NCBI GenBank assembly: GCA_963716525.1
Contig: OY970315.1
Span: 3,996,682 to 4,060,681 of the forward strand
DNA: 64,000 nt
Reading direction: 5' to 3'
Source: an uncultured Actinomycetes bacterium
GTDB taxonomy: Bacteria > Actinomycetota > Acidimicrobiia > IMCC26256 > PALSA-610
The notes below the pieces were generated by a model. It was given only the letters and a program-made list of their open reading frames with translations. It did not search any database and had not been told where the DNA came from. Shown piece after piece: positions 31,656 through 44,133 of this stretch (position 1 is its first letter; each line of letters begins with the position of its first letter). The translations under genes were made by a program, and so were the position numbers.

Positions 31656-32915
31656 TCAGAAGTCGGACTCGGAGAAGGGACCGACCACCGCGAGGGCGCG
31701 GGGTTGGCCGCGCAGCAACCGGTCCACGACGCGGCCGACGTGGTCGAGGGTGACGGCGTCGACGCGGCGCGCCAACTCCTCGAGCGACGGGATCTCGCCC
31801 TCCACCAGCTCGCCGTGGCCCAGCCGGCGCATGCGCGACGACGACGTTTCGAGCGACATGAGCAGTGAGCCGGTGAGGTTGCCCTTGGCGGCCCGCAGCT
31901 CGTCGTCGGTGATGGTGCCCGCACTCGTGATGCGATCGAGCTCGCCGTGCACGAGCCCGAGCGTCTCCTTCGCCCGCTCGACCGTGGTACCGGCGTACAC
32001 GGCGAGGAATCCGCTCTCGTCGAACGCGGCCCGGAACGAGTACACGGAGTACGCGAGGCCGCGATCCTCACGGATCTCCTGGAACAGTCGCGACGACATG
32101 CCGCCGCCGAGCACATGGTTCAGCACGGTGACCGCGTAGCGGTCGGGGTCGCGGTGTGCCGGGGCGCGCACACCCAGTACGAGATGGGCCTGCTCGGTGT
32201 CGCGCTCGACCACGCGCACCGGCCGCGGCGGCGAGAGCGCGGTGTGCTCGCGAGCCGGGCGGGCGCCGTTCGTGGACGGCCCCATGCGCGCGACGAGCTC
32301 GCATACCCGCGCATGGTCGAGGTTTCCTGCCGCCGCGAGCACCGTGTTGGCGGCCCGGTAGTGCGAGCCGTGATAGTCGCGCACCGAGTCGCGGGTCATG
32401 TTCGACACCGTCGTCTCGGAGCCGATCACCTCGCGGCCGAGCGGATGGTCGGGGAACAGGGCGCTCGCGAACACGTCGTGCACGAGGTCGTCGGGCGTGT
32501 CGTCGCGCATCGCGATCTCTTCGAGGATCACCTGCCGCTCGCACTCGACCTCGTCGGGGCGAAACGCGGGACGCCACACGATGTCGCTCAGCACATCGGC
32601 CGCGAGCTCCAGTTGGTCGTCGGGCACGCGCACGTAGAACACCGTCTGCTCGTGCGCGGTGAACGCGTTCATCTCACCGCCCACCGACTCGATCGCGTCG
32701 GCGATGTCGCGGGCGGAGCGTGTCTCGGTGCCCTTGAACAGCAGGTGCTCGAGGAAGTGGCTCGCGCCCACGACCCCGTCGTCCTCGTCGCGCGCGCCCG
32801 TGCCCACCCACGCGCCGATCGTGACGGAACGCAGCTGCGGCAGTGCCTCGGTGACGACGCGCAGCCCCGACGGGAGTTCGGAGCGCTGCACACCGTCCGG
32901 TGCAGGAGGCGTCAC
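31656..32915 (-). CDS. M16 family zinc metallopeptidase (pitrilysin-like)
   Basis: Inverted zinc motif HFLEHLLFKGT plus a downstream Glu (REVILEEI). 4-nt overlap with the pnp stop. Conserved pnp-M16 pairing in actinobacteria. Confidence 0.85.
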   Translation of the reverse strand: MTPPAPDGVQRSELPSGLRVVTEALPQLRSVTIGAWVGTGARDEDDGVVGASHFLEHLLFKGTETRSARDIADAIESVGGEMNAFTAHEQTVFYVRVPDDQLELAADVLSDIVWRPAFRPDEVECERQVILEEIAMRDDTPDDLVHDVFASALFPDHPLGREVIGSETTVSNMTRDSVRDYHGSHYRAANTVLAAAGNLDHARVCELVARMGPSTNGARPAREHTALSPPRPVRVVERDTEQAHLVLGVRAPAHRDPDRYAVTVLNHVLGGGMSSRLFQEIREDRGLAYSVYSFRAAFDESGFLAVYAGTTVERAKETLGLVHGELDRITSAGTITDDELRAAKGNLTGSLLMSLETSSSRMRRLGHGELVEGEIPSLEELARRVDAVTLDHVGRVVDRLLRGQPRALAVVGPFSESDF

Positions 32916-35347
32916 CGCCGGCGTGGCCCGCCTCCACGACGGCGCGGGCGGCCACCGCCACTGCGCTCACCGCCACCGCGCTCACCGCCGGCACTCGACT
33001 CGACCGCGGGACCGAGATCGCCGAACTCATCGGCGGTCTGCGCATCCCACTCGCGCTCGAAGCTCACCGTCTCGACCCCAGGTCCACCGCCGCTCGCTGT
33101 GCTCGCGCCCCGAGGGGCACTCCCCGCGCCCGAGCCATTGCCCGAATCGCCGGCCGGCGCGTCATCGTCACCGACGAGCGACAGCGACAGCTTGCCGTTC
33201 TGGTCGATGTCGTCGACGCGCACCTCGAGCTCGTCGCCGAGATTGAGCACGTCCTCGACCCGGTCGATGCGCTTGCCACGCCCGAGCTTGGAGATGTGCA
33301 CCAGACCGTCGCGGCCCGGGAGGATGTTGACGAAGGCGCCGAACTTCGTGACATTCACGACCTTGCCGGTGTAGACGGCGCCGAGCTCCGCGGTAGGCGG
33401 GTCGAGGATCAACATGATGCGACGTTGGGCCTCCTCGACGCGCGAGCTCTCCTTCGAGCCGATCGACACCAGGCCGACGGTGCCGTCGTCGCTGACCGCG
33501 ATGTCGGCGCCGGTGTCCTGCTGGATCGTGTTGATGACCTTGCCCTTGGGCCCGATCACCTCGCCGATCTTGTCGATCGGGATCTCGAAGCTGATGATCT
33601 TCGGCGCGCTCTCGCGCACCTCAGGCCGCGGCTCGGCGATCGCCTCGGCCATCACGCCGAGGATCTTCAGGCGCGCTTCCTTGGCCTGGTTGAGCGCCGC
33701 CGCGAGCACGTCGGCGGGGATGCCGGCGATCTTCGTGTCGAGCTGCAGCGCGGTCACGAACTCCGCCGTACCCGCGACCTTGAAGTCCATGTCGCCGAAC
33801 GCGTCCTCGGCGCCGAGGATGTCGGTGAGCGTCGTGTACTTGCCCTCGGCGTGCACGAGTCCCATGGCGATGCCGGCCACCGGCGCCTTGATCGGCACAC
33901 CGGCGTCCATCAGCGACAGCGAGGAGCCGCACACCGACGCCATCGAGGTGGAGCCGTTCGACGAGAGCACGTCGGACACCACACGGATCGTGTAGGGCCA
34001 GTCCTCCTTCGGCGGCAGCACCGGAACGAGCGCACGCTCGGCCAGTGCACCGTGACCGATCTCCCGCCGCTTCGGCGACCCGACCCGGCCGGTCTCGCCG
34101 GTGGAGAACGGCGGGAAGTTGTAGTGGTGCATGTAGCGCTTCTTCTCGTCGGTGGTGATCGTGTCGAGCATCTGCTCCATGCGGAGCATGCCGAGCGTCG
34201 CCACCGAGAGCACCTGCGTCTCACCGCGCTGGAACAGACCGGAACCGTGCGCGGTGTTGAGCAGCCCCACCTCGGCCGAGAGCGGGCGGATGTCGCTGGT
34301 GCCGCGGCCGTCGATACGCACGCCCTCGTTCACGATCCGGGCGCGCACCGTCTTCTTCTGCAGGCTGCGGAACGCCCGCTTCACCTGCACCGCGCGATCG
34401 GCGAACGGTCCGGGCACGTCGGCGGCGCCAGCGAGGGTCGCGATCACGTCGCCCTCGACCTCGTCGAGGCGCGCATTGCGGTCGTGCTTGTCGGCGATCT
34501 TCATCGCCTCGGCGACCGATGCACCGCTCTGCTGCTCGACCGCGGCGAACACGTCGTCGTCGTAGTCGGTGTGCCGCTGGTATTCGATCGTCTCGATCTT
34601 GCCGCGCTCCTCTTCGAGCCGGCGCCGCAGCTCCAGCTGCAGCTTGATCGACGCCGCGATCCACTGCTTCGAGTACTCGAGCCCTTCGGCGATCACCTCT
34701 TCGGTGACCTTCGGCGCGCCGTCGTCGTAGAGGTCCCACGACATCTCGGTGCCACCGGCCTCGACCATCATGATCGCGACGTCGCCGTCGTCGAGCAGGC
34801 GCCCGGCCACGACGATCTCGAACGTGGAGCGGTCACCCTCCTGGAACGTGGGGTGCGCCACCCACTCGCCCTCGAGGTGCGCGAGGCGCACCGCGCCGAT
34901 CGGGCCGTTGAACGGGATGCCGCTCACCATGAGCGCGGCCGACGCGCCGTTGATCGACGCGACGTCGTGGGGGTTCTCCATGTCGGCGCCGAGGATCGTG
35001 GCGACCACCTGCACCTCGTTGCGGAACCCCTCGGGGAAGCTCGGCCGCAGCGGGCGGTCGGTGAGCCGGCAGGTGAGGATCGCCTGCTCGCCGGGCCGGC
35101 CCTCCCGCCGGAAGAACGAGCCGGGGATCTTCCCGGCCGCGTACATCCGTTCCTCGACCTCGACGGTGAGCGGGAAGAAGTCGATGCCCTCACGGGGCTT
35201 CGACGTGCAGACCGTGCTGAGCAGCGTGGTGTCACCGAGGCGCACCACGACCGCACCGTCGGCGAGCTCCGCGAGCTTGCCGGTCTCGAACGACATCTCC
35301 AGGCCGTCGGCGTTCACCGGGCCTGAGACACGAATGGCGTCACGCAT
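32912..35347 (-). CDS. pnp: polyribonucleotide nucleotidyltransferase (PNPase)
   Basis: Two RNase PH domains, KH (IGEVIGPKGKVIN) and S1 (GKVVNVTKFGAFVNILPGRDGLVHISKL). Extra Gly/Arg-rich C-terminal tail (GGERGGGERSGGGRPRRRGGGPRRR). Confidence 0.95.
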   Translation of the reverse strand: MRDAIRVSGPVNADGLEMSFETGKLAELADGAVVVRLGDTTLLSTVCTSKPREGIDFFPLTVEVEERMYAAGKIPGSFFRREGRPGEQAILTCRLTDRPLRPSFPEGFRNEVQVVATILGADMENPHDVASINGASAALMVSGIPFNGPIGAVRLAHLEGEWVAHPTFQEGDRSTFEIVVAGRLLDDGDVAIMMVEAGGTEMSWDLYDDGAPKVTEEVIAEGLEYSKQWIAASIKLQLELRRRLEEERGKIETIEYQRHTDYDDDVFAAVEQQSGASVAEAMKIADKHDRNARLDEVEGDVIATLAGAADVPGPFADRAVQVKRAFRSLQKKTVRARIVNEGVRIDGRGTSDIRPLSAEVGLLNTAHGSGLFQRGETQVLSVATLGMLRMEQMLDTITTDEKKRYMHHYNFPPFSTGETGRVGSPKRREIGHGALAERALVPVLPPKEDWPYTIRVVSDVLSSNGSTSMASVCGSSLSLMDAGVPIKAPVAGIAMGLVHAEGKYTTLTDILGAEDAFGDMDFKVAGTAEFVTALQLDTKIAGIPADVLAAALNQAKEARLKILGVMAEAIAEPRPEVRESAPKIISFEIPIDKIGEVIGPKGKVINTIQQDTGADIAVSDDGTVGLVSIGSKESSRVEEAQRRIMLILDPPTAELGAVYTGKVVNVTKFGAFVNILPGRDGLVHISKLGRGKRIDRVEDVLNLGDELEVRVDDIDQNGKLSLSLVGDDDAPAGDSGNGSGAGSAPRGASTASGGGPGVETVSFEREWDAQTADEFGDLGPAVESSAGGERGGGERSGGGRPRRRGGGPRRR

Positions 35348-35539: not shown

Positions 35540-35797
35540 CTAGCGGCGGATCCCCAGCTTGGCGATGAGCGCCCGGTAACCCTCGACGTCGTTGGCGCGC
35601 AGGTAGTCGAGCATGCGGCGCCGCTGACCCACGAGCATCAGCAGCCCCCGCCGAGAGTGATGGTCCTTCTTGTGGACCTTCAGGTGCTCGGTGAGGTGCT
35701 GGATCCGCTCGGTGAGCAGCGCGATCTGCACCTCGGTCGACCCGGTATCGGTGTCGTGCCGCCGGTGCTCGGAGATCGTGGCTTGCTTGTTCGGCAT
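35540..35797 (-). CDS. rpsO: 30S ribosomal protein S15
   Basis: 85-aa ORF ...[49 protein letters not shown]... Confidence 0.95.
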
Positions 35798-36063
35798 CTG
35801 GTTCGAAGACTCTCAGGTTCTGCGGGCACGCAGGAGCGGCGCAGGGAATCGCGGGGCTAGACCTCGTCTGCCCGAGACTCGGACGGACGGAAAAAGCTAC
35901 CACGGGCCGGCCGCCGCGCCCCGCCGGGGCGCATCCGGAGCCTGCCTTCCCGGGTGACGGCGAAAACGCGTAGCGACTACGCGGGCTCACTCGGTGCCAT
36001 CTCTCTACCTTCGGGGTGGGGCTCGACTCGACCGGCAACCACTGGCATCCGGGGGCACTTGCC

Positions 36064-36642
36064 ATGATCAGATTCCTTGGCCGTCACGGCATCGCGATCG
36101 TCGCACTGTTCATCGCGCTCGGCGGCACCGCCTACGCGGCCAACACCGTCCGCTCCGCCGACATCGTCGACGGCACGGTCCAGACCCAGGATCTCGCCAA
36201 CAAGGCGGTGACCCCGACCAAGACCACAGGCGTCTGGACGTTCCACACCGTCGCGACCCAGGTGACGTCTGACTGCGCGAAGGCTGCCCAGACCTGGACG
36301 GCGTGCGCGCCCGTCACACTCACAGTTCCGGCCGGGCACCGGTACTCGGTGACCGTGCAGTCGACGGTCGAGATCTACGTCGGCCCCACGCGGACCGAAT
36401 TCACGTTGTTCGACTACTGCGCCGCGTCCTCGGGCCCTTCGTGCTTCGCCGGCACGTACGACGAGTTGCTCGTCAGCGACGGAGAGACGGTGACCGCGAG
36501 CAACGCCGGGCACCGCGTGTACGGGCCCGGTACCTACACGTTCTCAACCGCCATGAAGTCCTACTACGCGGTGCCGAGCTTCAAGAACGCGCACACCACG
36601 ACCACGGTCATCGCGACCGACGCCGCCAACACGACGCATTGA
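36064..36642 (+). CDS. hypothetical secreted/membrane-anchored Cys-containing protein, paralog 1 of 3
   Basis: MIRFLGRHGIAIVALFIALGGTAYAANTVRSADIVDGTVQTQDLANKAVTPTKT... Shares the N-terminal 45 aa, 4 Cys and the GPGTYTFSTAMK motif with the next two genes. Confidence 0.7.
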   Translation: MIRFLGRHGIAIVALFIALGGTAYAANTVRSADIVDGTVQTQDLANKAVTPTKTTGVWTFHTVATQVTSDCAKAAQTWTACAPVTLTVPAGHRYSVTVQSTVEIYVGPTRTEFTLFDYCAASSGPSCFAGTYDELLVSDGETVTASNAGHRVYGPGTYTFSTAMKSYYAVPSFKNAHTTTTVIATDAANTTH

Positions 36643-36669
36643 CGGAGAGCACAGGAACGAGGGAACTCG

Positions 36670-37233
36670 ATGATCCGCTTCATTCGACGTAACACCGTTG
36701 CGTTCATCGCCCTGCTGATCGCGCTCGGCGGCACCGCCTACGCGGCCAACACCGTGCGGTCGATCGACATCGTCGACGGGACCATCAAGACGCAAGATCT
36801 CGCGAACGGCGCGGTGACGCCCACGAAGACCAAGAACGTGGTGACCCTCAACTCGACGAATTTCCAGAAGACCGCTGCGTGCGTGCAACCGCAGATCTGG
36901 TTCGCGTGCACGCCGATCCCCGTGTACGTGCCGGCGGGGCGCCAGTGGCGGGTGACGGTGATCTCGACCGTCAACGCCGAACCGACAGGCACACAATCGA
37001 CGACCGCGCTGTACTGCGCGGCCAAGAGCGGACCCACGTGCATCAACGGCGGCCCGGTGTACGCGACGTTCGGGGCGCACGTCGTGACGAGCGCGACCGA
37101 CACCGCGACAGTCATCGTCGGGCCGGGAAGCTACACGTTCTCCACCGCAGTGAAGTTCCCCGTCACCGTGGTCGACGCTGCCACCATGCACACGACCACC
37201 ACGGTCATCATCACCGATCTGGGCAAGTCATAA
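36670..37233 (+). CDS. hypothetical secreted/membrane-anchored Cys-containing protein, paralog 2 of 3
   Basis: MIRFIRRNTVAFIALLIALGGTAYAANTVRSIDIVDGTIKTQDLANGAVTPTKT...GPGSYTFSTAVKFP...HTTTTVIITD. Confidence 0.7.
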   Translation: MIRFIRRNTVAFIALLIALGGTAYAANTVRSIDIVDGTIKTQDLANGAVTPTKTKNVVTLNSTNFQKTAACVQPQIWFACTPIPVYVPAGRQWRVTVISTVNAEPTGTQSTTALYCAAKSGPTCINGGPVYATFGAHVVTSATDTATVIVGPGSYTFSTAVKFPVTVVDAATMHTTTTVIITDLGKS

Positions 37234-37240
37234 GCGAAAG

Positions 37241-37819
37241 ATGTCGATCATGCTTGCATTTCTCCGGCGCAATCTCATCGCGCTCGTTGCACTGTTCATC
37301 GCGCTCGGCGGCACGGCCTATGCGGCCAACACCGTGCGCTCGACCGACATCGTCGACGGCACGATCAAGACCGTCGACCTCGCCAACAAGGCGGTGACAC
37401 CGGCGAAGACCACCGGCCTCGGCGTGTTGCACTACACCTCGGTTGCGCAGACGAGCGACTGCGCCAGGCAGGCCAACATCTGGAAGGCCTGTGCCGGGAT
37501 CGGCCTGCTTGTTCCTGCGGGCCATGTCTACTCGGTCACGGTGATTTCCGTGGTGCACGCCGATCCGTCTGCCACCCAGGATGCGCACGCCCTGATCTGC
37601 GCGGCGCGGTCGGGACCGACGTGCATGCAGAGCGAGCCTGACTACGTGACGTTCTGGAAGCACGGTGTCACGAGCGCGACGTCGGTTGCATCGGGCATCT
37701 TCGGTCCGGGCAGCTACAGCTTCTCCACGGCCGTCAAGTTCCCCTTTCCGATTCTCGCCGACCCGAACGCGCACACGAGCACCACGTTGATCGTGACCGA
37801 TCGAGCAGCCGAGCAATAG
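37241..37819 (+). CDS. hypothetical secreted/membrane-anchored Cys-containing protein, paralog 3 of 3
   Basis: MSIMLAFLRRNLIALVALFIALGGTAYAANTVRSTDIVDGTIKTVDLANKAVTPAKT...GPGSYSFSTAVKFP...HTSTTLIVTD. Confidence 0.7.
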   Translation: MSIMLAFLRRNLIALVALFIALGGTAYAANTVRSTDIVDGTIKTVDLANKAVTPAKTTGLGVLHYTSVAQTSDCARQANIWKACAGIGLLVPAGHVYSVTVISVVHADPSATQDAHALICAARSGPTCMQSEPDYVTFWKHGVTSATSVASGIFGPGSYSFSTAVKFPFPILADPNAHTSTTLIVTDRAAEQ

Positions 37820-37843
37820 CTCGCGAACGCCCCGCTCGCGCCG

Positions 37844-38785
37844 TCATTGCATCAACTCCCGGGTGCGCGCGACGTCGGCGCGCATCTGCTCGACGAGCGC
37901 GTCGACGCCGTCGAACTTCATCTGGGGGCGGAGGTGGTGCACGAAGCGCACCTCGAGCTCCTGGCCGTAGAGGTCGCCGTCGAAGTCGAGCAGGTACGGC
38001 TCGAGGAGGCGCATGCCGCGCTCGTCGTAGAACGTGGGGCGGCGGCCGAGGGAGATCGCCGCGACGTGCTCGCTACCGTCGCCGGTGCGCACCGTGCCCG
38101 CGTACACCCCATCGGCAGGCACGCAAATGCGCGCCGGCACGGCCATGTTCGCGGTGGGAAACCCGAGCTCGCGGCCGCGATGGTCGCCCTCCTCCACGGC
38201 CCCACGCACCGCATGGAGCCGGCCGAGCACCTCTGCCGCGCCCGCCACGTCGCCCTCGGCGAGCAGGTGGCGGGCACGGGTGGACGAGTAGGCGGGACCG
38301 CCGGGCACCTCGGCCACGAGCCCGTAGCCGATCACCTCGAAGCCGACCTGCGCGCCGACCTCCTCGAGCATCGGCACGTTGCCGGTGCGGTTGTGCCCGA
38401 AGTGGAAGTCGGCGCCCACCACCACGACTCGGGCCGCGCAGATGCCCACGAGCACCTCGCCGACGAAGTCGTCGGCCGTCTCCTTGCTGCGCGCCTCGTC
38501 GAAGGTGAGCACCACCGTGTGGTCGACGAGCCCCGTGGCTGCGAGCAGCTCGAGCTTCTGCGCCAGCGTGGTGAGCAGCGGCGGCGCGCTCGCGGGGCGC
38601 ACGACCTCCGCGGGATGGCGGTCGAACGTGACGATTGCCGACTCCAGGCCTCGTGCCGTCGCGAGCTCGCGCACGAGCCGCAGCAGCGCATGGTGGCCCC
38701 GGTGCACGCCGTCGTACGCGCCGATCGACACGACAGTGCCCGCCGAGATCGGCGGCGGCGCGGCGGGATCACGGTGCACCTGCAC
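37844..38785 (-). CDS. ribF: bifunctional riboflavin kinase / FMN adenylyltransferase
   Basis: VVSIGAYDGVHRGHHALL (FMNAT), GADFHFG, and the kinase part GRELGFPTAN...GVYAG...RPTF. GTG start at 38785. Confidence 0.9.
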   Translation of the reverse strand: MQVHRDPAAPPPISAGTVVSIGAYDGVHRGHHALLRLVRELATARGLESAIVTFDRHPAEVVRPASAPPLLTTLAQKLELLAATGLVDHTVVLTFDEARSKETADDFVGEVLVGICAARVVVVGADFHFGHNRTGNVPMLEEVGAQVGFEVIGYGLVAEVPGGPAYSSTRARHLLAEGDVAGAAEVLGRLHAVRGAVEEGDHRGRELGFPTANMAVPARICVPADGVYAGTVRTGDGSEHVAAISLGRRPTFYDERGMRLLEPYLLDFDGDLYGQELEVRFVHHLRPQMKFDGVDALVEQMRADVARTRELMQ

Positions 38786-38796
38786 GATGGGTCTGT

Positions 38797-39765
38797 CTAC
38801 TCCCCTACCGCGCCGACCGGTCGCACGAGCACCACCGACGGCTTGAGCATCCCCGCGCGCCACGGTTCGTAGACCGCGAGCACCTCGCCCGACTCGTCGC
38901 ACACCGCGATCGGGCCGGTTGCCGTGGCCGCCGTGTCCGTCGTGGCCGTCGTGGCCGTCGTGGCCGTCGTGTCCGGGAGCGTGGCACCGTGCGCGACGGT
39001 GCGTGCGGTGTCGTCGTCGACGGTGAGGCGGGGAAGGTCGCGCAGCGCGGTGGCGATCGGGAGCACGCAGCCGGCGCCGCGTTGCTCGACCTCGTCGAGC
39101 GGGTGCGCGCCGGCGAGGTCGAAGCGCCCGACCGCGAGCCGGCGCAGCTCGGCCACGTGCGCCAGACCGCCGAGCGCGGTGCCGAGATCGGCCGCGAGGC
39201 TGCGCACGTAGGTGCCGCTGGAGCACTCCACCAGCACCGTCGCCCGCGCTGGACGCCCTACGACAGCAGGGTCGAGATCCTCGACCTCGAAGCGGTGCAC
39301 CGTCACGGTGCGAGGCGCGCGCTCCACCTCAGTGCCTTCGCGCGCCAGTTCGTGCAGGCGCCGCCCACCCACCTTCACCGCCGACACCATCGGCGGCACC
39401 TGCTGGATCGGACCGGTGAACCGCGCCACCGCGGCGTCGAGCTGCGCACGGTCGACGTGCATCTCGGTGCGGCCGATCACGCGGCCCGAGGCATCGAGCG
39501 TGTCGGTGGCGACGCCGAACACGATCACCGCGCGGTACACCTTGGTGGTGTCGGTGACGAACCGCAACAGGCGCGTCGCCGCACCGAGCGCCACGACCAG
39601 CACGCCGGTGGCGTCGGGATCGAGGGTGCCGCCGTGGCCCACCTGGCGCTGCCCGAACACCTTGCGGCAGCGAGCCACCACGTCATGGCTCGTCATCCCC
39701 GCCGGCTTGTCGACGACGAGGAAACCGTCGACGTTCGCAGGGCGGTTACGACGGGAGCGCGGCAC
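38797..39765 (-). CDS. truB: tRNA pseudouridine(55) synthase
   Basis: GFLVVDKPAGMTSHDVV and the catalytic-Asp context VGHGGTLDPDATGVLVV. GTG start at 39765 chosen. The C-terminal domain carries a Thr/Ala repeat insertion. Confidence 0.9.
   Translation of the reverse strand: MPRSRRNRPANVDGFLVVDKPAGMTSHDVVARCRKVFGQRQVGHGGTLDPDATGVLVVALGAATRLLRFVTDTTKVYRAVIVFGVATDTLDASGRVIGRTEMHVDRAQLDAAVARFTGPIQQVPPMVSAVKVGGRRLHELAREGTEVERAPRTVTVHRFEVEDLDPAVVGRPARATVLVECSSGTYVRSLAADLGTALGGLAHVAELRRLAVGRFDLAGAHPLDEVEQRGAGCVLPIATALRDLPRLTVDDDTARTVAHGATLPDTTATTATTATTDTAATATGPIAVCDESGEVLAVYEPWRAGMLKPSVVLVRPVGAVGE
38921..38974. repeat. 6 x 9-bp tandem repeat (gtcgtggcc and variants) inside truB
   Basis: Read directly from the sequence. 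Encodes TTATTATTATTDTAATAT in frame. Confidence 0.9.
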
Positions 39766-40792
39766 GGATGCGCTCGACCACCGTGTCGATCGGGCCCTCG
39801 CCGGTGAAGCCGGCGGCGAAGCGGTGCCCCCCACCGCCGAAGCCCTGCGCGATCTCGCACACGTCGACCGCGCCCTGGCTGCGCAGGCTCACGCGCACCG
39901 AACCGTCGGGATCCTCCTTCAGCACCGCGCTGACGTCGGCCTCCTTCGTGCGGCGCACGACATCGATGAGTCCCTCGACCTCATCCATGGTGACATCGTG
40001 CTCGGCAAGGTCGGCTTGCGTGACCGATGTCCACACGAAGCTCTGCTCGGGCACGAGCTCAGCGCGCGCGATCACCGCGGCGAGCAGTCGCATGTACTGG
40101 AACCGGTGCTCCTCGAACAGGGTGCGCGACAGCAACGCGATCGGCAGGTCGAACTCCGTGAGCTCGCGGGCGAGCTCGAACACCGCCGGGGTGGTGGAGT
40201 CGTACTGGAAGCGGCCGGTGTCGCACACGAGCGCAGCGAACAGGCAGAGCGCGGCGTCGCGGTTCAGCGGCAGGCCGAGTGCCTTCACGAGGTCGCGCAC
40301 CACCACGCTGCTCGCCGCGGCATGCGGATCGATCACGTTGATCGTGCCGTAACGATCGTTGCTCACGTGGTGGTCGACCACGATGAGCTCGCGCGCCGCC
40401 CTCGCGCTCGCCTCGAGCGTGCCGAGGCGCGCGATCGAGCCGGAATCGAACGTGACCATGAGCTCGGGCTCGGCCGGGAAGTCGACGGGCTTCGTGAGCT
40501 CGTCGAGGCCCGCCAGCTCGCGGTAGTGCGGTGCCACCACGAACGGCTCCGAGAACGAGGCGATCGACGGCACACCCGCGGCGCGCAGCACGAGGTGGAG
40601 GCCGAGCATCGAGCCGAGCGCGTCGCCGTCGGGCGACACGTGGCACGCGAGCGCCACGGCGCGGGCACCGGCGATCGCAACCGCAGCCTGCTCGAGCGCG
40701 CCGCGGTACTCGGCGGCCTCGTCGCTGCCACCGTCGCCGCCGCCGGAGCGGGCTTCGGGGTCGTGGGAGCGCGCGGACATCACTGTCTTCAT
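39746..40792 (-). CDS. nrnA: DHH/DHHA1 family phosphoesterase (NrnA-type oligoribonuclease / pAp phosphatase)
   Basis: DHH motifs (HVSPDGDALGS, VTFDSGS, VVDHHVSN) and DHHA1 GGGGH near the C-terminus. Start at MKTVMSARS (40792). Confidence 0.85.
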   Translation of the reverse strand: MKTVMSARSHDPEARSGGGDGGSDEAAEYRGALEQAAVAIAGARAVALACHVSPDGDALGSMLGLHLVLRAAGVPSIASFSEPFVVAPHYRELAGLDELTKPVDFPAEPELMVTFDSGSIARLGTLEASARAARELIVVDHHVSNDRYGTINVIDPHAAASSVVVRDLVKALGLPLNRDAALCLFAALVCDTGRFQYDSTTPAVFELARELTEFDLPIALLSRTLFEEHRFQYMRLLAAVIARAELVPEQSFVWTSVTQADLAEHDVTMDEVEGLIDVVRRTKEADVSAVLKEDPDGSVRVSLRSQGAVDVCEIAQGFGGGGHRFAAGFTGEGPIDTVVERIRAALPS

Positions 40793-41343: not shown

Positions 41344-41632
41344 CGGTGTCGAGCCAGGTGATCTCGACACCGAGGAGCTCGATGTCGGCCGCGGCGGCCA
41401 CGAAGCGCTCCACCGCGTCGAGCACCTCCTCGACGTGGCGGTGGTCGGCGGCCACCACGGCCACCGCGACGGCCGACCGTTGCCAGGTGTCGTGGTGGTC
41501 GACCTCGGCCACCGACAGGCGAAAGCGGTGCCGCAGGCCGTCGATGACGGGCCGGATCGCGGCCCGCTTGGCTTTGAGCGAGTGGCTCGCGGGCACGTGC
41601 AGCTCGAAGCGGGCCACCGCAGCGTCCATCAC
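41339..41632 (-). CDS. DUF503 (YlxP-like) protein
   Basis: 97-aa ORF MMDAAVARFELHVPASHSLKAKRAAIRPVIDGLRHRF...SVAEV. This is the usual small gene between infB and rbfA in actinobacteria and Firmicutes. Confidence 0.8.
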   Translation of the reverse strand: MMDAAVARFELHVPASHSLKAKRAAIRPVIDGLRHRFRLSVAEVDHHDTWQRSAVAVAVVAADHRHVEEVLDAVERFVAAAADIELLGVEITWLDTA

Positions 41633-41653
41633 CCGGCCGGTCTACCCGCCTCG

Positions 41654-41695
41654 TTGTCCCATCGGGAGCCAACTTGTTGGCTCCCGATGGGACAA
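41654..41695. repeat. palindromic element type 2, copy B (TTGTCCCATCGGGAGCCAAC-tt-GTTGGCTCCCGATGGGACAA)
   Basis: Perfect 20-bp arms. Lies 22 nt upstream of the DUF503 start and about 85-100 nt upstream of the divergent ECF sigma gene. Confidence 0.9.
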
Positions 41696-41780
41696 CAGGA
41701 GGTATCGCCGGGGCTCGGGGCGCCGATCGGGGAGACTGGCGGCCGGTTGCACTTCGGGGGCATGCGGTGTCGTTCTGGAT

Positions 41781-42299
41781 GTGGGCAGGGGAATCGTGAT
41801 CGAGAACGGCCCCGGCACAGAGCGGGACGAGCGAGTGCTCGACGAGCTGCGCGGCCTCTACGAGCCACTGCGGCGCTTTGCCGCCGTCGTGGGGCGGCTC
41901 GACGTGGAACCCGACGACCTGGTGCAGGAGGCCTACGCCCGGTTCCTCGCCGGCGACCGGTCCGGCGTCGCCGACGCGGGCGCGTATCTGCGCCGCACGA
42001 TCGTGAACCTCGCGAGCAACGAGCGGCGGCGGATGCGACGGGCGGATGCCGCGGCGCAGCGCCTCGGCGCCGGTGACGATGGCGGCAAACGGCGCGACAG
42101 CTACCCCAGCGCGCTCGGCGACCTGCTCGCGCTCGATCCGCGCGACCGCGCGCTCCTCTATCTCGTCGACGTCGACGGCTACTCCGCGAAGGACGCCGCC
42201 GCGCTGGTCGGGATCAACGCCGCCGCGGCGCGCATGGCCCTCTCCAGGGGCCGGCGGGCGCTGCGCATCGCAATGGAAACGGAGTCGACCGATGTCTGA
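41781..42299 (+). CDS. ECF-type RNA polymerase sigma-70 family factor
   Basis: Region 2 (PDDLVQEAYARFL...YLRRTIVNLASNERRR) and region 4 HTH (LLYLVDVDGYSAKDAAALVGINAAAARMALSRGRRAL). The start is GTG at 41781 or 41796. Confidence 0.8.
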   Translation: MGRGIVIENGPGTERDERVLDELRGLYEPLRRFAAVVGRLDVEPDDLVQEAYARFLAGDRSGVADAGAYLRRTIVNLASNERRRMRRADAAAQRLGAGDDGGKRRDSYPSALGDLLALDPRDRALLYLVDVDGYSAKDAAALVGINAAAARMALSRGRRALRIAMETESTDV

Positions 42300-44133
42300 C
42301 CGCACTGGTCACAGCGCCCCGGGCGCGCCATGGGACGCGCTCGCACGCCGGGGTGAGCGCCGGGGTGCCGACGCGGTGCTGACCGCGGCCGTCGCCCGAG
42401 CGGAATCGGCAAGCGACGGCGTTCCCGTCGCCGACCTCGCGCCGCGCGACGGCTCGAAACGCGGTCGGCGGGGCCGGCGCACGTTCGGCATCGTCGGCAT
42501 CGCCGCGCTGCTCGGCGCCGGCGGCTACGCGATCGCCGGGGTGCAGGGCAACGGAACCGGCGGCGACTCCCCCGCCGCAGTGGTGCAGCAGCTCGCCGAT
42601 GCGATCGGCCACGAAGACGCGCTCGCCGCCGTCGCCGCGCTGGACCCGTCGGAGATCTCGACCTTGCAATCGACCGTCGGCAAGGCCGAGCACAAGGCGA
42701 AGGACACGAAGCTCGTCGACTCCTCGAGCGCACCGTTCGCGGGCATCGACTTCTCGGTCAACGGGCTGCAGACGTCGGTGACCTCGCTTGCCGGCGGCGT
42801 TGCGAAGGTGACGCTGTCGGGTTCGATCTCGGCCAAGGTGAGCGCGGGCCAATTGTCGGAGGTGCTGCAGCGTGTCGCCGGCAACGCGCAGGGTTCGGTG
42901 AACCTCGCGCGGCTCGGCGCCAGCGGTGGTGCACCGTTCGTGGTGACGGTCGAGCGCGACGGCAAGTGGTACGTGAGCCCGATGTACACCGCGTTCGAGT
43001 ACGTGCGGTCGGCGGAGAACCTGCCGCCGGCCGACTTCGGCTCGGCCAACGCGTCGAAGCTCGGCGCGACCTCGCCCGACGGCGCGGTCGAGCAGCTGAT
43101 CCGCGCGATCGGCGCGGGCGACTGGAACACGGTCGCGTCGCTCGCACCGCCCGACCAGTTCCCGCTCTACGAGTACCGCGCCGCGTTCGCGCAGCTGATG
43201 GGCAACTCGCTGGGGTCGGGGCAACACTTCACCGTCGATCACGTCGTCGCGACACCGCACGCCCACGGCACGAACGCGACGGTGGACGTCACCGCATCGG
43301 GCACATACCCCGGCACCGACTACAGAACCGGCGCGCCGGCGACGGAACCGTGGAAGCTCGTCGACGGGTGCGTGACCGGCGACCAGTCGTACCAGAGCGC
43401 GAGGGGTGTCGTCGAAGGCGCGAGCTACCCCATCGGGAACCTCTGCCTGCTCGATCACGGCCCATTGCCGATCGGTTCGGGATTCGTGACGAGCGGTCCG
43501 ACGCCGGTGCATGCCGTCGAGGAGAGTGGGCGCTGGTACGTGAGTCCCGTGGGCACCGCGCTCGACTACCTCGACCGCTGGGTTGCGAACTTCGACGACA
43601 ACACGCTCGCAAGCCTGCTGCACCAGCCACTCATCGCGCCGGTGACCGGCCCACTCACGCTCGACCGCACCGTCAAGGTCGGTGCACCGGCCGACGCCGC
43701 ACGCTTCGCGTACGTGCAATTCGCGCATTACACGCTGCACGTCGACGGGCCCGCCGCCGTTGTGGTCGACACGCGCGGGAACATGCCGAACGCGCCGGCG
43801 GGAATCTCGGTCGGCTCGGCCTTCGCCACCAGCATTTACGGCCCGGACGGGCACATGCTCACGCCCGACAGCACGTGGACCCGCTATCACCTGCCCGCCG
43901 CCGGCACCTACGACGTGATCACCGAGCGCGCCCCCTACGCGACGCTCACGGTGTGGCGGGCCGCGGATGCGCCGAAGGACGTGCCCACCGGTGAGCCCGG
44001 CTGCAATCCGACGCCGAACGGTGGCGAGGAGTGCTACAGCAGCGGCAGCTCGTCGAGCTCGAGCTCCTCGACGTCCGTCCCGCCGGTCACGATCCAGGTG
44101 CGGCCGACCGTCACCGTGACCACCGGCAAGTGA
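42292..44133 (+). CDS. single-pass membrane protein with large extracytoplasmic domain (candidate anti-sigma / sigma-coupled sensor)
   Basis: The ATG overlaps the sigma stop by 8 nt. Cytoplasmic N-segment of about 65 aa, then TM helix TFGIVGIAALLGAGGYAIAGV. Internal duplication (GKWYVSPMYTAFEYV / GRWYVSPVGTALDYL). Poly-Ser tail. No ZAS HxxxCxxC motif. Confidence 0.65.
   Translation: MSDRTGHSAPGAPWDALARRGERRGADAVLTAAVARAESASDGVPVADLAPRDGSKRGRRGRRTFGIVGIAALLGAGGYAIAGVQGNGTGGDSPAAVVQQLADAIGHEDALAAVAALDPSEISTLQSTVGKAEHKAKDTKLVDSSSAPFAGIDFSVNGLQTSVTSLAGGVAKVTLSGSISAKVSAGQLSEVLQRVAGNAQGSVNLARLGASGGAPFVVTVERDGKWYVSPMYTAFEYVRSAENLPPADFGSANASKLGATSPDGAVEQLIRAIGAGDWNTVASLAPPDQFPLYEYRAAFAQLMGNSLGSGQHFTVDHVVATPHAHGTNATVDVTASGTYPGTDYRTGAPATEPWKLVDGCVTGDQSYQSARGVVEGASYPIGNLCLLDHGPLPIGSGFVTSGPTPVHAVEESGRWYVSPVGTALDYLDRWVANFDDNTLASLLHQPLIAPVTGPLTLDRTVKVGAPADAARFAYVQFAHYTLHVDGPAAVVVDTRGNMPNAPAGISVGSAFATSIYGPDGHMLTPDSTWTRYHLPAAGTYDVITERAPYATLTVWRAADAPKDVPTGEPGCNPTPNGGEECYSSGSSSSSSSSTSVPPVTIQVRPTVTVTTGK

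Follow-up and report, generated by a model that had tools for sequence, protein, structure and literature searches.

Three tandem genes for putative exported mini-fibre proteins with a C1q/TNF-like head between rpsO and ribF of an uncultured member of the Acidimicrobiia

Three paralogous genes lie in tandem between rpsO and ribF on contig OY970315.1 (assembly GCA_963716525.1) of an uncultured bacterium of the class Acidimicrobiia (GTDB lineage IMCC26256; PALSA-610). The whole stretch of DNA that was analysed, called the window here, comprises 64,000 nucleotides (positions 3,996,682 to 4,060,681 of the forward strand) and belongs to a genome of one contig of 4.59 Mb. The genes, all on the plus strand, are named copies 1, 2 and 3 in 5' to 3' order; each encodes a leader, an N-module/stalk and a head, and leader and N-module/stalk together are termed the front end. 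Here we present the architecture, conservation, predicted fold, distribution and age of these genes, together with the reading that we consider probable, namely that copies 1-3 encode exported, disulfide-stabilised, probably trimeric ligand-binding mini-fibres. The genes and their flanks, in window positions, are as follows.

36064..36642, plus strand: copy 1, 192 amino acids (aa); leader residues 1-25 (36064-36138, ...GGTAYA/A), N-module/stalk residues 26-57 (36139-36234), head residues 58-192 with Cys 71/81/119/127
36670..37233, plus strand: copy 2, 187 aa; leader 36670-36744, N-module/stalk 36745-36840, head 36841-37230
37241..37819, plus strand: copy 3, 192 aa from ATG 37241; leader to 37324, N-module/stalk 37325-37420, head 37421-37816 with Cys 74/84/120/128; the copy modelled by AlphaFold2
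35912..36063, plus strand: unique sequence 5' of the block, divergent from rpsO; presumed promoter and 5' untranslated region of copy 1
35540..35797, minus strand: rpsO (ribosomal protein S15), left flank, 94-98% identical in congeners
37844..38800, minus strand: ribF (FAD synthetase/riboflavin kinase), right flank, convergent with copy 3
32912-35347, minus strand: pnp, part of the flanking run
38797-39834, minus strand: truB, part of the flanking run

Copies 1-3 share 51-59% pairwise identity with mutual E-values of 1e-48 to 1e-56, far beyond chance, in agreement with an initial annotation that had called three plus-strand paralogs of 187-192 aa here. A search of the 4.59-Mb contig found these three as the only copies of the N-module or of the family. 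They are regarded as real genes because their GC content at third codon positions (GC3) is host-like, their N-terminal part is under purifying selection and homologs exist elsewhere. Copy 2 is preceded by a Shine-Dalgarno-like motif, GAGGGA, 5-6 nt 5' of its ATG. The spacers of 7-27 nt reported earlier hold for the genes as called; for copy 3, however, the register of the DNA repeats and the N-termini of homologs suggest ATG 37250 (MLAFLRRN...) as the more likely start, which would give a protein of 189 aa and a spacer of 16 nt behind copy 2. The flanking genes are all on the minus strand, so that the block does lie antisense within the truB-ribF-rpsO-pnp run, and the stop codons of copy 3 and ribF are 24 nt apart.

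The front end of all three copies contains the motif ALFIALGGTAYAANTVRSxDIVDGT. As read from the sequence, the leader has a basic start, M(I/L)RF(L/I)(G/R)R..., a hydrophobic core of 11-15 residues, a Gly-Gly break and the sequence GGT-A-Y-A/A-N-T, in which A26, Y27 and A28 are invariant in 27 family members. A hydrophobic leader with an AxA-type site occurs in all family members, including the remote ones that carry other stalks. The signal or anchor proposed in the initial annotation is thus recognisable as a leader of the Gram-positive Sec/signal-peptidase-I type by its sequence features, and would be either cleaved or kept as an N-terminal anchor. It contains no lipobox Cys and is therefore not a lipoprotein signal. 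Export as a Tat substrate was also considered and rejected, as the position of the twin arginine reads RR, RQ, RH, GR or KQ across the family, where an S/T-R-R-x-F-L-K motif is expected.

The approximately 30 residues after the leader, ANTVRSxDIVDGT(I/V)xTxDLAN(K/G)AVTP.KT, form the most conserved stretch of the proteins. Relatives carry 0-5 extra units of about 10 residues ('xDIxDxSLxGA') inserted in this stretch, and the stalk ranges from about 30 residues in copies 1-3 to about 120 in relatives. Two of the three copies weakly match phage tail-fibre PHROGs (phrog_892 and relatives) with their stalks (E 0.0075 and 0.0077; none for copy 2), and the long-stalk member P0115 matches the same group with an E-value of 4.5e-9. 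Weak profile matches were likewise obtained to designed pentapeptide solenoids (E 1.5e-4 to 2e-3) and to HetL (1.7e-4, 21 bits against a cut-off of 260); Pfam gave no pentapeptide match for the stalk. In the long-stalk relative P0015 the stalk was not folded by AlphaFold2 as a monomeric solenoid (pLDDT <55), which fits an oligomer-dependent fibre and a flexible tether alike.

The heads of copies 1-3 have the motifs VPAG, CAAxSGPxC, GPGxYxFSTA and HTxTT in common, and four Cys in the arrangement C-x8/9-C and C-x7-C; the shared N-terminus, the Cys and all motifs previously listed for the three proteins were found again. All four Cys recur throughout an alignment of 27 family members and are nearly invariant in 76 remote members; two local disulfides (C-x9-C and C-x7-C) presumably brace the head. 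This disulfide pattern and the motifs CAPVTxTVPAG and CxAxxGPxC are specific to the family. Pfam, NCBIfam and PADLOC contained no family for copies 1-3 and PHROGs no significant family for the head; with the PADLOC anti-phage defence models 0 families were matched at E<=1 by any of the three proteins. A sequence search of the PDB with the head profile gave no match, no recurrent Pfam domain was present among the 76 head-family members scanned, and a literature search returned no description of this protein family. Judged by their sequences, copies 1-3 belong to no described family.

An AlphaFold2 model of copy 3, built on an alignment of 27 sequences, shows a helix at residues 2-23, a segment of low confidence at 26-60 and an all-beta domain at 61-188; the second, independent model, that of P0015, gives the same picture. 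In both models the head is an antiparallel jelly roll of about 130 residues with pLDDT 91-98. With both models the top Foldseek matches in the PDB are mostly trimeric C1q/TNF-like domains (probability ~1.0, E 3e-5 to 1e-3), with target-normalised TM of 0.41-0.55 for 1gr3, 1pk6, 4nn0, 5ybz, 2wq4 and 6u66 and an rmsd of about 5 A at best. Copy 3 matched ExsFA/BxpB, the NC1 domain of collagen X (TM 0.54), adiponectin, C1q heads, C1QTNF5, RANKL, CD40L, EDA and Pgp3; P0015 matched Pgp3, the TNF-like lectin BC2L-C (TM 0.55), ExsFA, C1QL3, Cbln1 and adiponectin. ExsFA/BxpB (PDB 7r5i, 8d02, 9h3d, a group with BclA) is the best structural match in the PDB for one head model and is in the top 30 for the other, and the N-terminal domain of Burkholderia cenocepacia BC2L-C (2wq4) has the highest target-normalised TM among the matches listed for P0015 (0.55, rmsd 4.8). 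The phi812 spike knob, a domain of a cyanophage short fibre and other phage knobs and fibre tips are among the matches, as is Bdellovibrio Bd1399 (PDB 8okh), and a search of the viral library BFVD gave phage fibre proteins and collagen/C1q proteins of giant viruses.

The models contain a sandwich of about 130 residues that superposes, with a moderate match, on C1q/TNF-like domains, and the case for placing the head in this jelly-roll class is good but not airtight. Members of the superfamily assemble with threefold symmetry via the sheet of strands A'-C-F-H, and by analogy the head probably trimerises. The profile-HMM (hidden Markov model) and structure searches that the initial annotation had proposed therefore divide: its statement that no characterised domain is recognisable stands for the HMM libraries, in which the head found no match, and can be refined by the Foldseek result, which points to the C1q/TNF-like fold class, and by the wide sharing of the N-module.

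A profile of the head alone found 102 clusters among 1.84 billion representatives. Six matches of more than 1,000 aa were dropped as spurious; the five of them scanned against Pfam were all WD40-repeat proteins, matched because a short segment of the profile was hit many times. The head family thus comprises about 96 clusters at 50% identity. Its genuine members carry the head at or near the C-terminus, behind a leader and some fibre-like stalk, and the stalks of some remote members contain the tail-fibre-like motifs 'NLNADKLDGKDS' ('NADKLDG'). In the remote members P0165, P0173, P0178 and P0209 the head is followed by a long tail of low complexity, rich in Ser/Gly (SSGGSSGTSSGG...), and is consequently not always C-terminal; the tail could be a wall-spanning or glycosylated linker. 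A full-length family member was seen on CAZLEC010000791.1, a contig of 2.1 kb (L024 / L009). This contig is titled 'uncultured Burkholderiales', yet its genome (G029) is placed in the family of the window genome, and either the title or the bin is probably wrong.

The N-module has a wider distribution than the head. More than 100 proteins share the front end only and continue into unrelated C-terminal domains; they come from Acidimicrobiia, Solirubrobacterales, Conexibacter and cultured Nocardioides. The N-module profile matches 3 proteins in the window genome and 2 in each of the two congeners. Among Nocardioides, Nocardioides sp. TF02-7 has 1 match and N. marinquilinus JCM 18459 has 5; a Conexibacter metagenome-assembled genome (MAG) has 6, another Actinomycetota MAG 11, and two Solirubrobacterales MAGs 19 and 21. 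The genome with 21 matches (G063) includes a cluster of three adjacent N-module genes with three different heads (L044:964-5375, a Solirubrobacterales MAG, G063:C5). One of them has the same Cys head as copies 1-3 (hhalign 99.2%, E 4e-19); the other two carry unrelated heads, and these two neighbours are 71% identical to each other over their first 91 residues and unrelated thereafter. A remote homology between the Cys head and other heads on the N-module (from Nocardioides, other MAGs and the two L044 neighbours) was rejected at an hhalign probability of <=1.2%. From these sequence comparisons, heads appear to be exchanged on a conserved leader-and-stalk cassette. One of the L044 heads contains a 'C..LG.RLP' motif, which we take to recall DUF1566/Lcl-type domains.

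At six homologous loci there was no conserved neighbourhood or partner gene, and neither there nor near the block were phage or mobile-element genes found. The homologs always stand solo among unrelated neighbours; this speaks against a phage origin of the loci in their present form and against a partner system dedicated to them.

The position of the block is specific to the window genome, as the initial annotation had suspected and a synteny comparison now shows. Compared with two congeners, homology ends at about 35877-35911, 80-115 bp upstream of rpsO, and resumes within the 3' end of ribF; about 1.93 kb (35912-37843) are unique to the window genome. Congener G001 has an empty ribF-rpsO spacer of about 300 bp, and congener G002 has a different gene in it (L017:2731-4041), which encodes a signal-peptide protein of 436 aa with a right-handed beta-helix (PF13229, 2.8e-7). 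G020, of the same bacterial family, carries a GDSL-like hydrolase there (L022:1925-2965; PF13472, 7.6e-10), and three further relatives from that family have gaps of 80-283 bp between ribF and rpsO. The spacer thus looks like a recurrent landing site for unrelated exported-protein or accessory genes in this bacterial family. Insertion of the block by a mobile element was rejected: inverted or direct terminal repeats, a target duplication, and integrase or transposase genes are all absent at the block. In the spacer of G001 (L018:1590-1800) a unit of about 70 nt (CTCTATTGCGCCTACTCCGTCCGGCGCGGGCGAG ... CGCTCGTTCCTCGCTCC) occurs twice, about 100 bp apart; it was seen by eye in the sequence and was not reported by TRF.

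The GC content of the block is indeed lower than that of its surroundings (0.64-0.66 versus 0.69-0.75), a difference that had been taken to suggest an acquisition. GC3 in the frames of the copies is, however, host-like (0.85-0.91 versus 0.89-0.93 in the neighbours) and the dip lies at first codon positions (GC1 0.51-0.56), so that it follows from the amino-acid composition of these Thr/Ser/Asn/Ile-rich proteins; foreign codon usage was rejected on GC3. A local GC dip alone is thus no evidence of transfer.

Selection among the copies was checked by comparing nonsynonymous (pN) with synonymous (pS) differences per site. The N-terminal part, about one third of each copy, is under purifying selection (pN 0.12-0.16 versus pS 0.35-0.50), and the heads evolve fast, with pN of 0.34-0.44 close to pS. 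A fast head joined to a frozen front end is the pattern expected where a conserved assembly or attachment part is combined with a diversifying recognition part. Recent gene conversion was considered and rejected as an explanation for the great likeness of the N-termini, as pS in the N-terminal part (0.35-0.50) is close to pS of the heads.

Synonymous divergence (dS) between copies 1-3 is 0.65-1.0 and near-saturated in the N-module, and hence these are not recent copies. A maximum-likelihood tree does not unite them in one clade: copy 1 clusters with P0004/P0007 (95/81 support), and the closeness of P0002, which comes from a different assembly, to copies 2 and 3 equals that between these two. 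P0007 belongs to congener G002, where it lies at an unrelated locus beside a ferritin gene; this locus (ferritin ... PAS-GGDEF) has no counterpart in the window genome. The dS values, the non-monophyly and the location of P0007 together indicate that the paralogs are older than the species split. The scenario of the initial annotation, acquisition followed by tandem amplification, does not agree with these data; by its sequence relationships the array would either have been assembled long ago or have been transferred as one block, rather than having arisen by recent local amplification. Tandem paralogs, in other words, need not be recent amplifications.

In the mechanism that we propose, copies 1-3 would be Sec-exported mini-fibres of three modules. 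The leader would direct export and then be cleaved or retained as an N-terminal anchor, and the mature N-terminus, ANTV(R/F)SxDIVDG(T/Q/E)VKxxDL..., would open a stalk of pentapeptide/tail-fibre-like repeats ending in the C-terminal jelly-roll head. By analogy with every well-studied protein of the same fold and architecture, the heads most probably trimerise and bind a ligand outside the cell. This would probably be a glycan or some other surface polymer, borne by the cell's own envelope, by neighbouring cells or by particles. With their diverged heads copies 1-3 would differ in specificity, and the genes would be stand-alone accessory members of a modular, head-swapping family.

Several observations weigh against this proposal. 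C1q (PF00386) and TNF (PF00229) were unmatched at E<=10 when the three proteins were run against Pfam-A by hmmscan, and there is no sequence-level tie to any solved structure. The rmsd values of the Foldseek matches are high (5-10 A) and their TM only moderate, and generic jelly rolls such as viral capsids and CBM4/16 follow further down the lists. The window proteins have no sortase, lipobox or wall-binding motif, and a stalk of about 30 residues, if membrane-anchored, could hardly reach beyond a Gram-positive wall. The near-invariance of the N-module is in part due to ascertainment, because candidates were gathered via shared 5-residue words.

In an alternative that we consider unlikely, the head is a binding module of jelly-roll or beta-sandwich type (CBM-like or Ig-like) that stays monomeric at the end of a flexible linker; the protein would then be a membrane-tethered or secreted envelope protein, such as a wall-polymer binder or a sensor partner, and no trimeric fibre. 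CBM4/CBM16 and single-jelly-roll capsid proteins are among the Foldseek matches, the stalk is unstructured in the monomer models, the very short stalk of the window copies suits a tether better than a fibre, and TM to C1q/TNF domains reaches only 0.4-0.55. In both searches, however, C1q/TNF-class proteins that are obligate trimers occupy the top ranks and most of the list, the repeats of the stalk are similar to those in trimeric phage fibres, and in remote members the head is borne by a long fibre-like stalk that contains 'NADKLDG' motifs. In another reading the genes are receptor-binding genes of phages (for tail-fibre tips), either domesticated or left as remnants, or else prophage morons; their role might be superinfection exclusion or that of a decoy for phage receptor-binding proteins. 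The stalk matches to tail-fibre PHROGs, the predominance of phage proteins among the BFVD matches (lambda J/Stf-like tips, spike knobs) and the modular head swapping typical of phage receptor-binding proteins would all agree with such an origin. We nevertheless hold it to be improbable: no phage or mobile gene, terminal repeat or target duplication was found near the block or at the six homologous loci, every member has a Sec-type leader that tail fibres do not have, codon usage is host-like, PADLOC matches number 0, and up to about 20 chromosomal copies per genome indicate a cellular gene family.

Least probable, and in our view very improbable, is that the proteins are small secreted Cys-stabilised effectors, bacteriocin- or toxin-like, whose tandem diversification reflects an arms race between competitors. 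They are small, exported and presumably disulfide-bonded, their C-terminal parts diverge fast (pN close to pS), and the tandem paralogs occupy accessory, patchily distributed loci. Against this stand the absence of any toxin, enzyme or immunity-gene signature in the libraries searched and of a conserved partner gene at any locus, and a fold class characteristic of binding heads rather than of pore-formers or enzymes.

Among described systems, the mini-fibre reading of copies 1-3 finds a close organisational parallel in the MAT (mosaic adhesive trimer) fibres of Bdellovibrio bacteriovorus, which combine a conserved N-terminal part with swappable tips (PMC10769870). Their tips include disulfide-containing TNF-like domains that bind GlcNAc, and TNF-like tips occur in Bd2439 and Bd2734 (PMC10769870). 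Both are cellular, non-phage multigene families in which a conserved N-terminal stretch follows the signal peptide and the tips at the C-terminus are exchanged, and both reach repertoires of about 20 per genome. MAT proteins, however, have about 1,000 aa, a beta-rich N-domain of about 130 aa, long intertwined beta-helical shafts and in some cases S74 chaperone-protease ends, and belong to a Gram-negative predator; proteins of the family described here have 190-400 aa, a conserved N-peptide of about 30 residues and pentapeptide-like repeats, and are found in Actinomycetota. Membership of copies 1-3 in the MAT family was rejected: with 187-192 aa, about 30 residues between leader and head and no detected sequence homology, the likeness is organisational.

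The exosporium proteins ExsFA/BxpB and BclA of Bacillus are likewise bacterial extracellular trimeric jelly rolls, and in BclA the head sits on a repeat stalk that is attached via a conserved N-terminal peptide. The BclA stalk is, however, collagen-like (GXX), assembly takes place on spores in the mother cell without a Sec leader, and there is no sequence similarity; Acidimicrobiia are not known to sporulate. The eukaryotic C1q/TNF proteins (C1q A/B/C, adiponectin, NC1 of collagen VIII/X, cerebellins, TNF ligands) share the fold class of the head and its C-terminal position on a stalk, and TNF ligands are type II membrane proteins in which N-anchor, stalk and C-terminal head follow one another in the same order. 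The chains of C1q, too, come from three paralogous genes in tandem. The stalk of the window proteins differs in not being collagen, and their disulfide pattern and motifs are their own.

Burkholderia BC2L-C and the C-terminal domain of Chlamydia Pgp3 (4jdn) are also secreted bacterial trimeric TNF-like domains, but have their own contexts (a lectin fusion and a coiled-coil trimer, respectively) and no motif in common with the window heads. BC2L-C is mentioned in PMC10769870 as binding fucosylated glycans at its protomer interfaces. Phage fibres (phrog_892, phi812 knob 9eul, cyanophage A-1(L) 8ke9, lambda J/Stf) resemble the family in stalk-repeat sequence, head fold and modular head exchange; they differ in lacking a signal peptide, in attaching to the baseplate via N-terminal domains and in lying in phage gene clusters, whereas the present family has a Sec-type leader and is encoded by solo genes on the chromosome whose codon usage is host-like. 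A placement of copies 1-3 among phage tail fibres was rejected, the weak stalk match standing alone and the six loci containing no phage genes. New in comparison with all these systems are the very compact format, the actinobacterial leader-and-stalk cassette with many heads, and this four-Cys head.

Bacterial C1q/TNF-like heads have been described in a handful of cases (Bacillus exosporium, Pgp3, the Burkholderia lectin, MAT tips), to which a rare unannotated type is added here. If the proteins are recognition fibres at the surface or secreted, they would provide a simple, genetically tractable system in which the recognition of polymers, neighbours or phages by uncultured soil Actinomycetota could be studied, and a source of small disulfide-stabilised binding scaffolds; the cultured Nocardioides strains with family members are possible models. 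More speculatively, the front end of about 50 residues (leader and ANTVxSxDIVDG...) might be a dedicated assembly and attachment cassette of a hitherto undescribed, Actinomycetota-wide system of exported trimeric mini-fibres with exchangeable heads, with copies 1-3 possibly co-assembling as C1q-like heterotrimers. We regard this extension as doubtful; if true, it would amount to a Gram-positive counterpart of the Bdellovibrio MAT fibres and to a bacterial heteromeric C1q-like recognition molecule.

Some further observations were made in and around the block. Promoter scanning of the block region found no sigma-70 consensus, no Rfam family was matched in it, and the terminator scan gave one terminator-like hairpin only, on the minus strand upstream of rpsO. 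This hairpin, with a T-run, lies at 35901-35918 (minus strand), about 100 nt upstream of rpsO and at the edge of the sequence conserved in congeners. It may be a part of the rpsO leader, or it may originally have served as the terminator of ribF, with the 1.9-kb block now lying between the two. In the 3' region of truB a 9-nt tandem repeat (38923-38975; 5.9 copies, 90% matches) encodes, read on the minus strand, a TTATTATTATT run in the C-terminal part of TruB. According to the list of open reading frames (ORFs), a second plus-strand insertion in the same minus-strand housekeeping run is located at 41346-44133, between the DUF503/rbfA side and infB; it contains an ECF-sigma-like ORF and a long ORF for a membrane or secreted protein.

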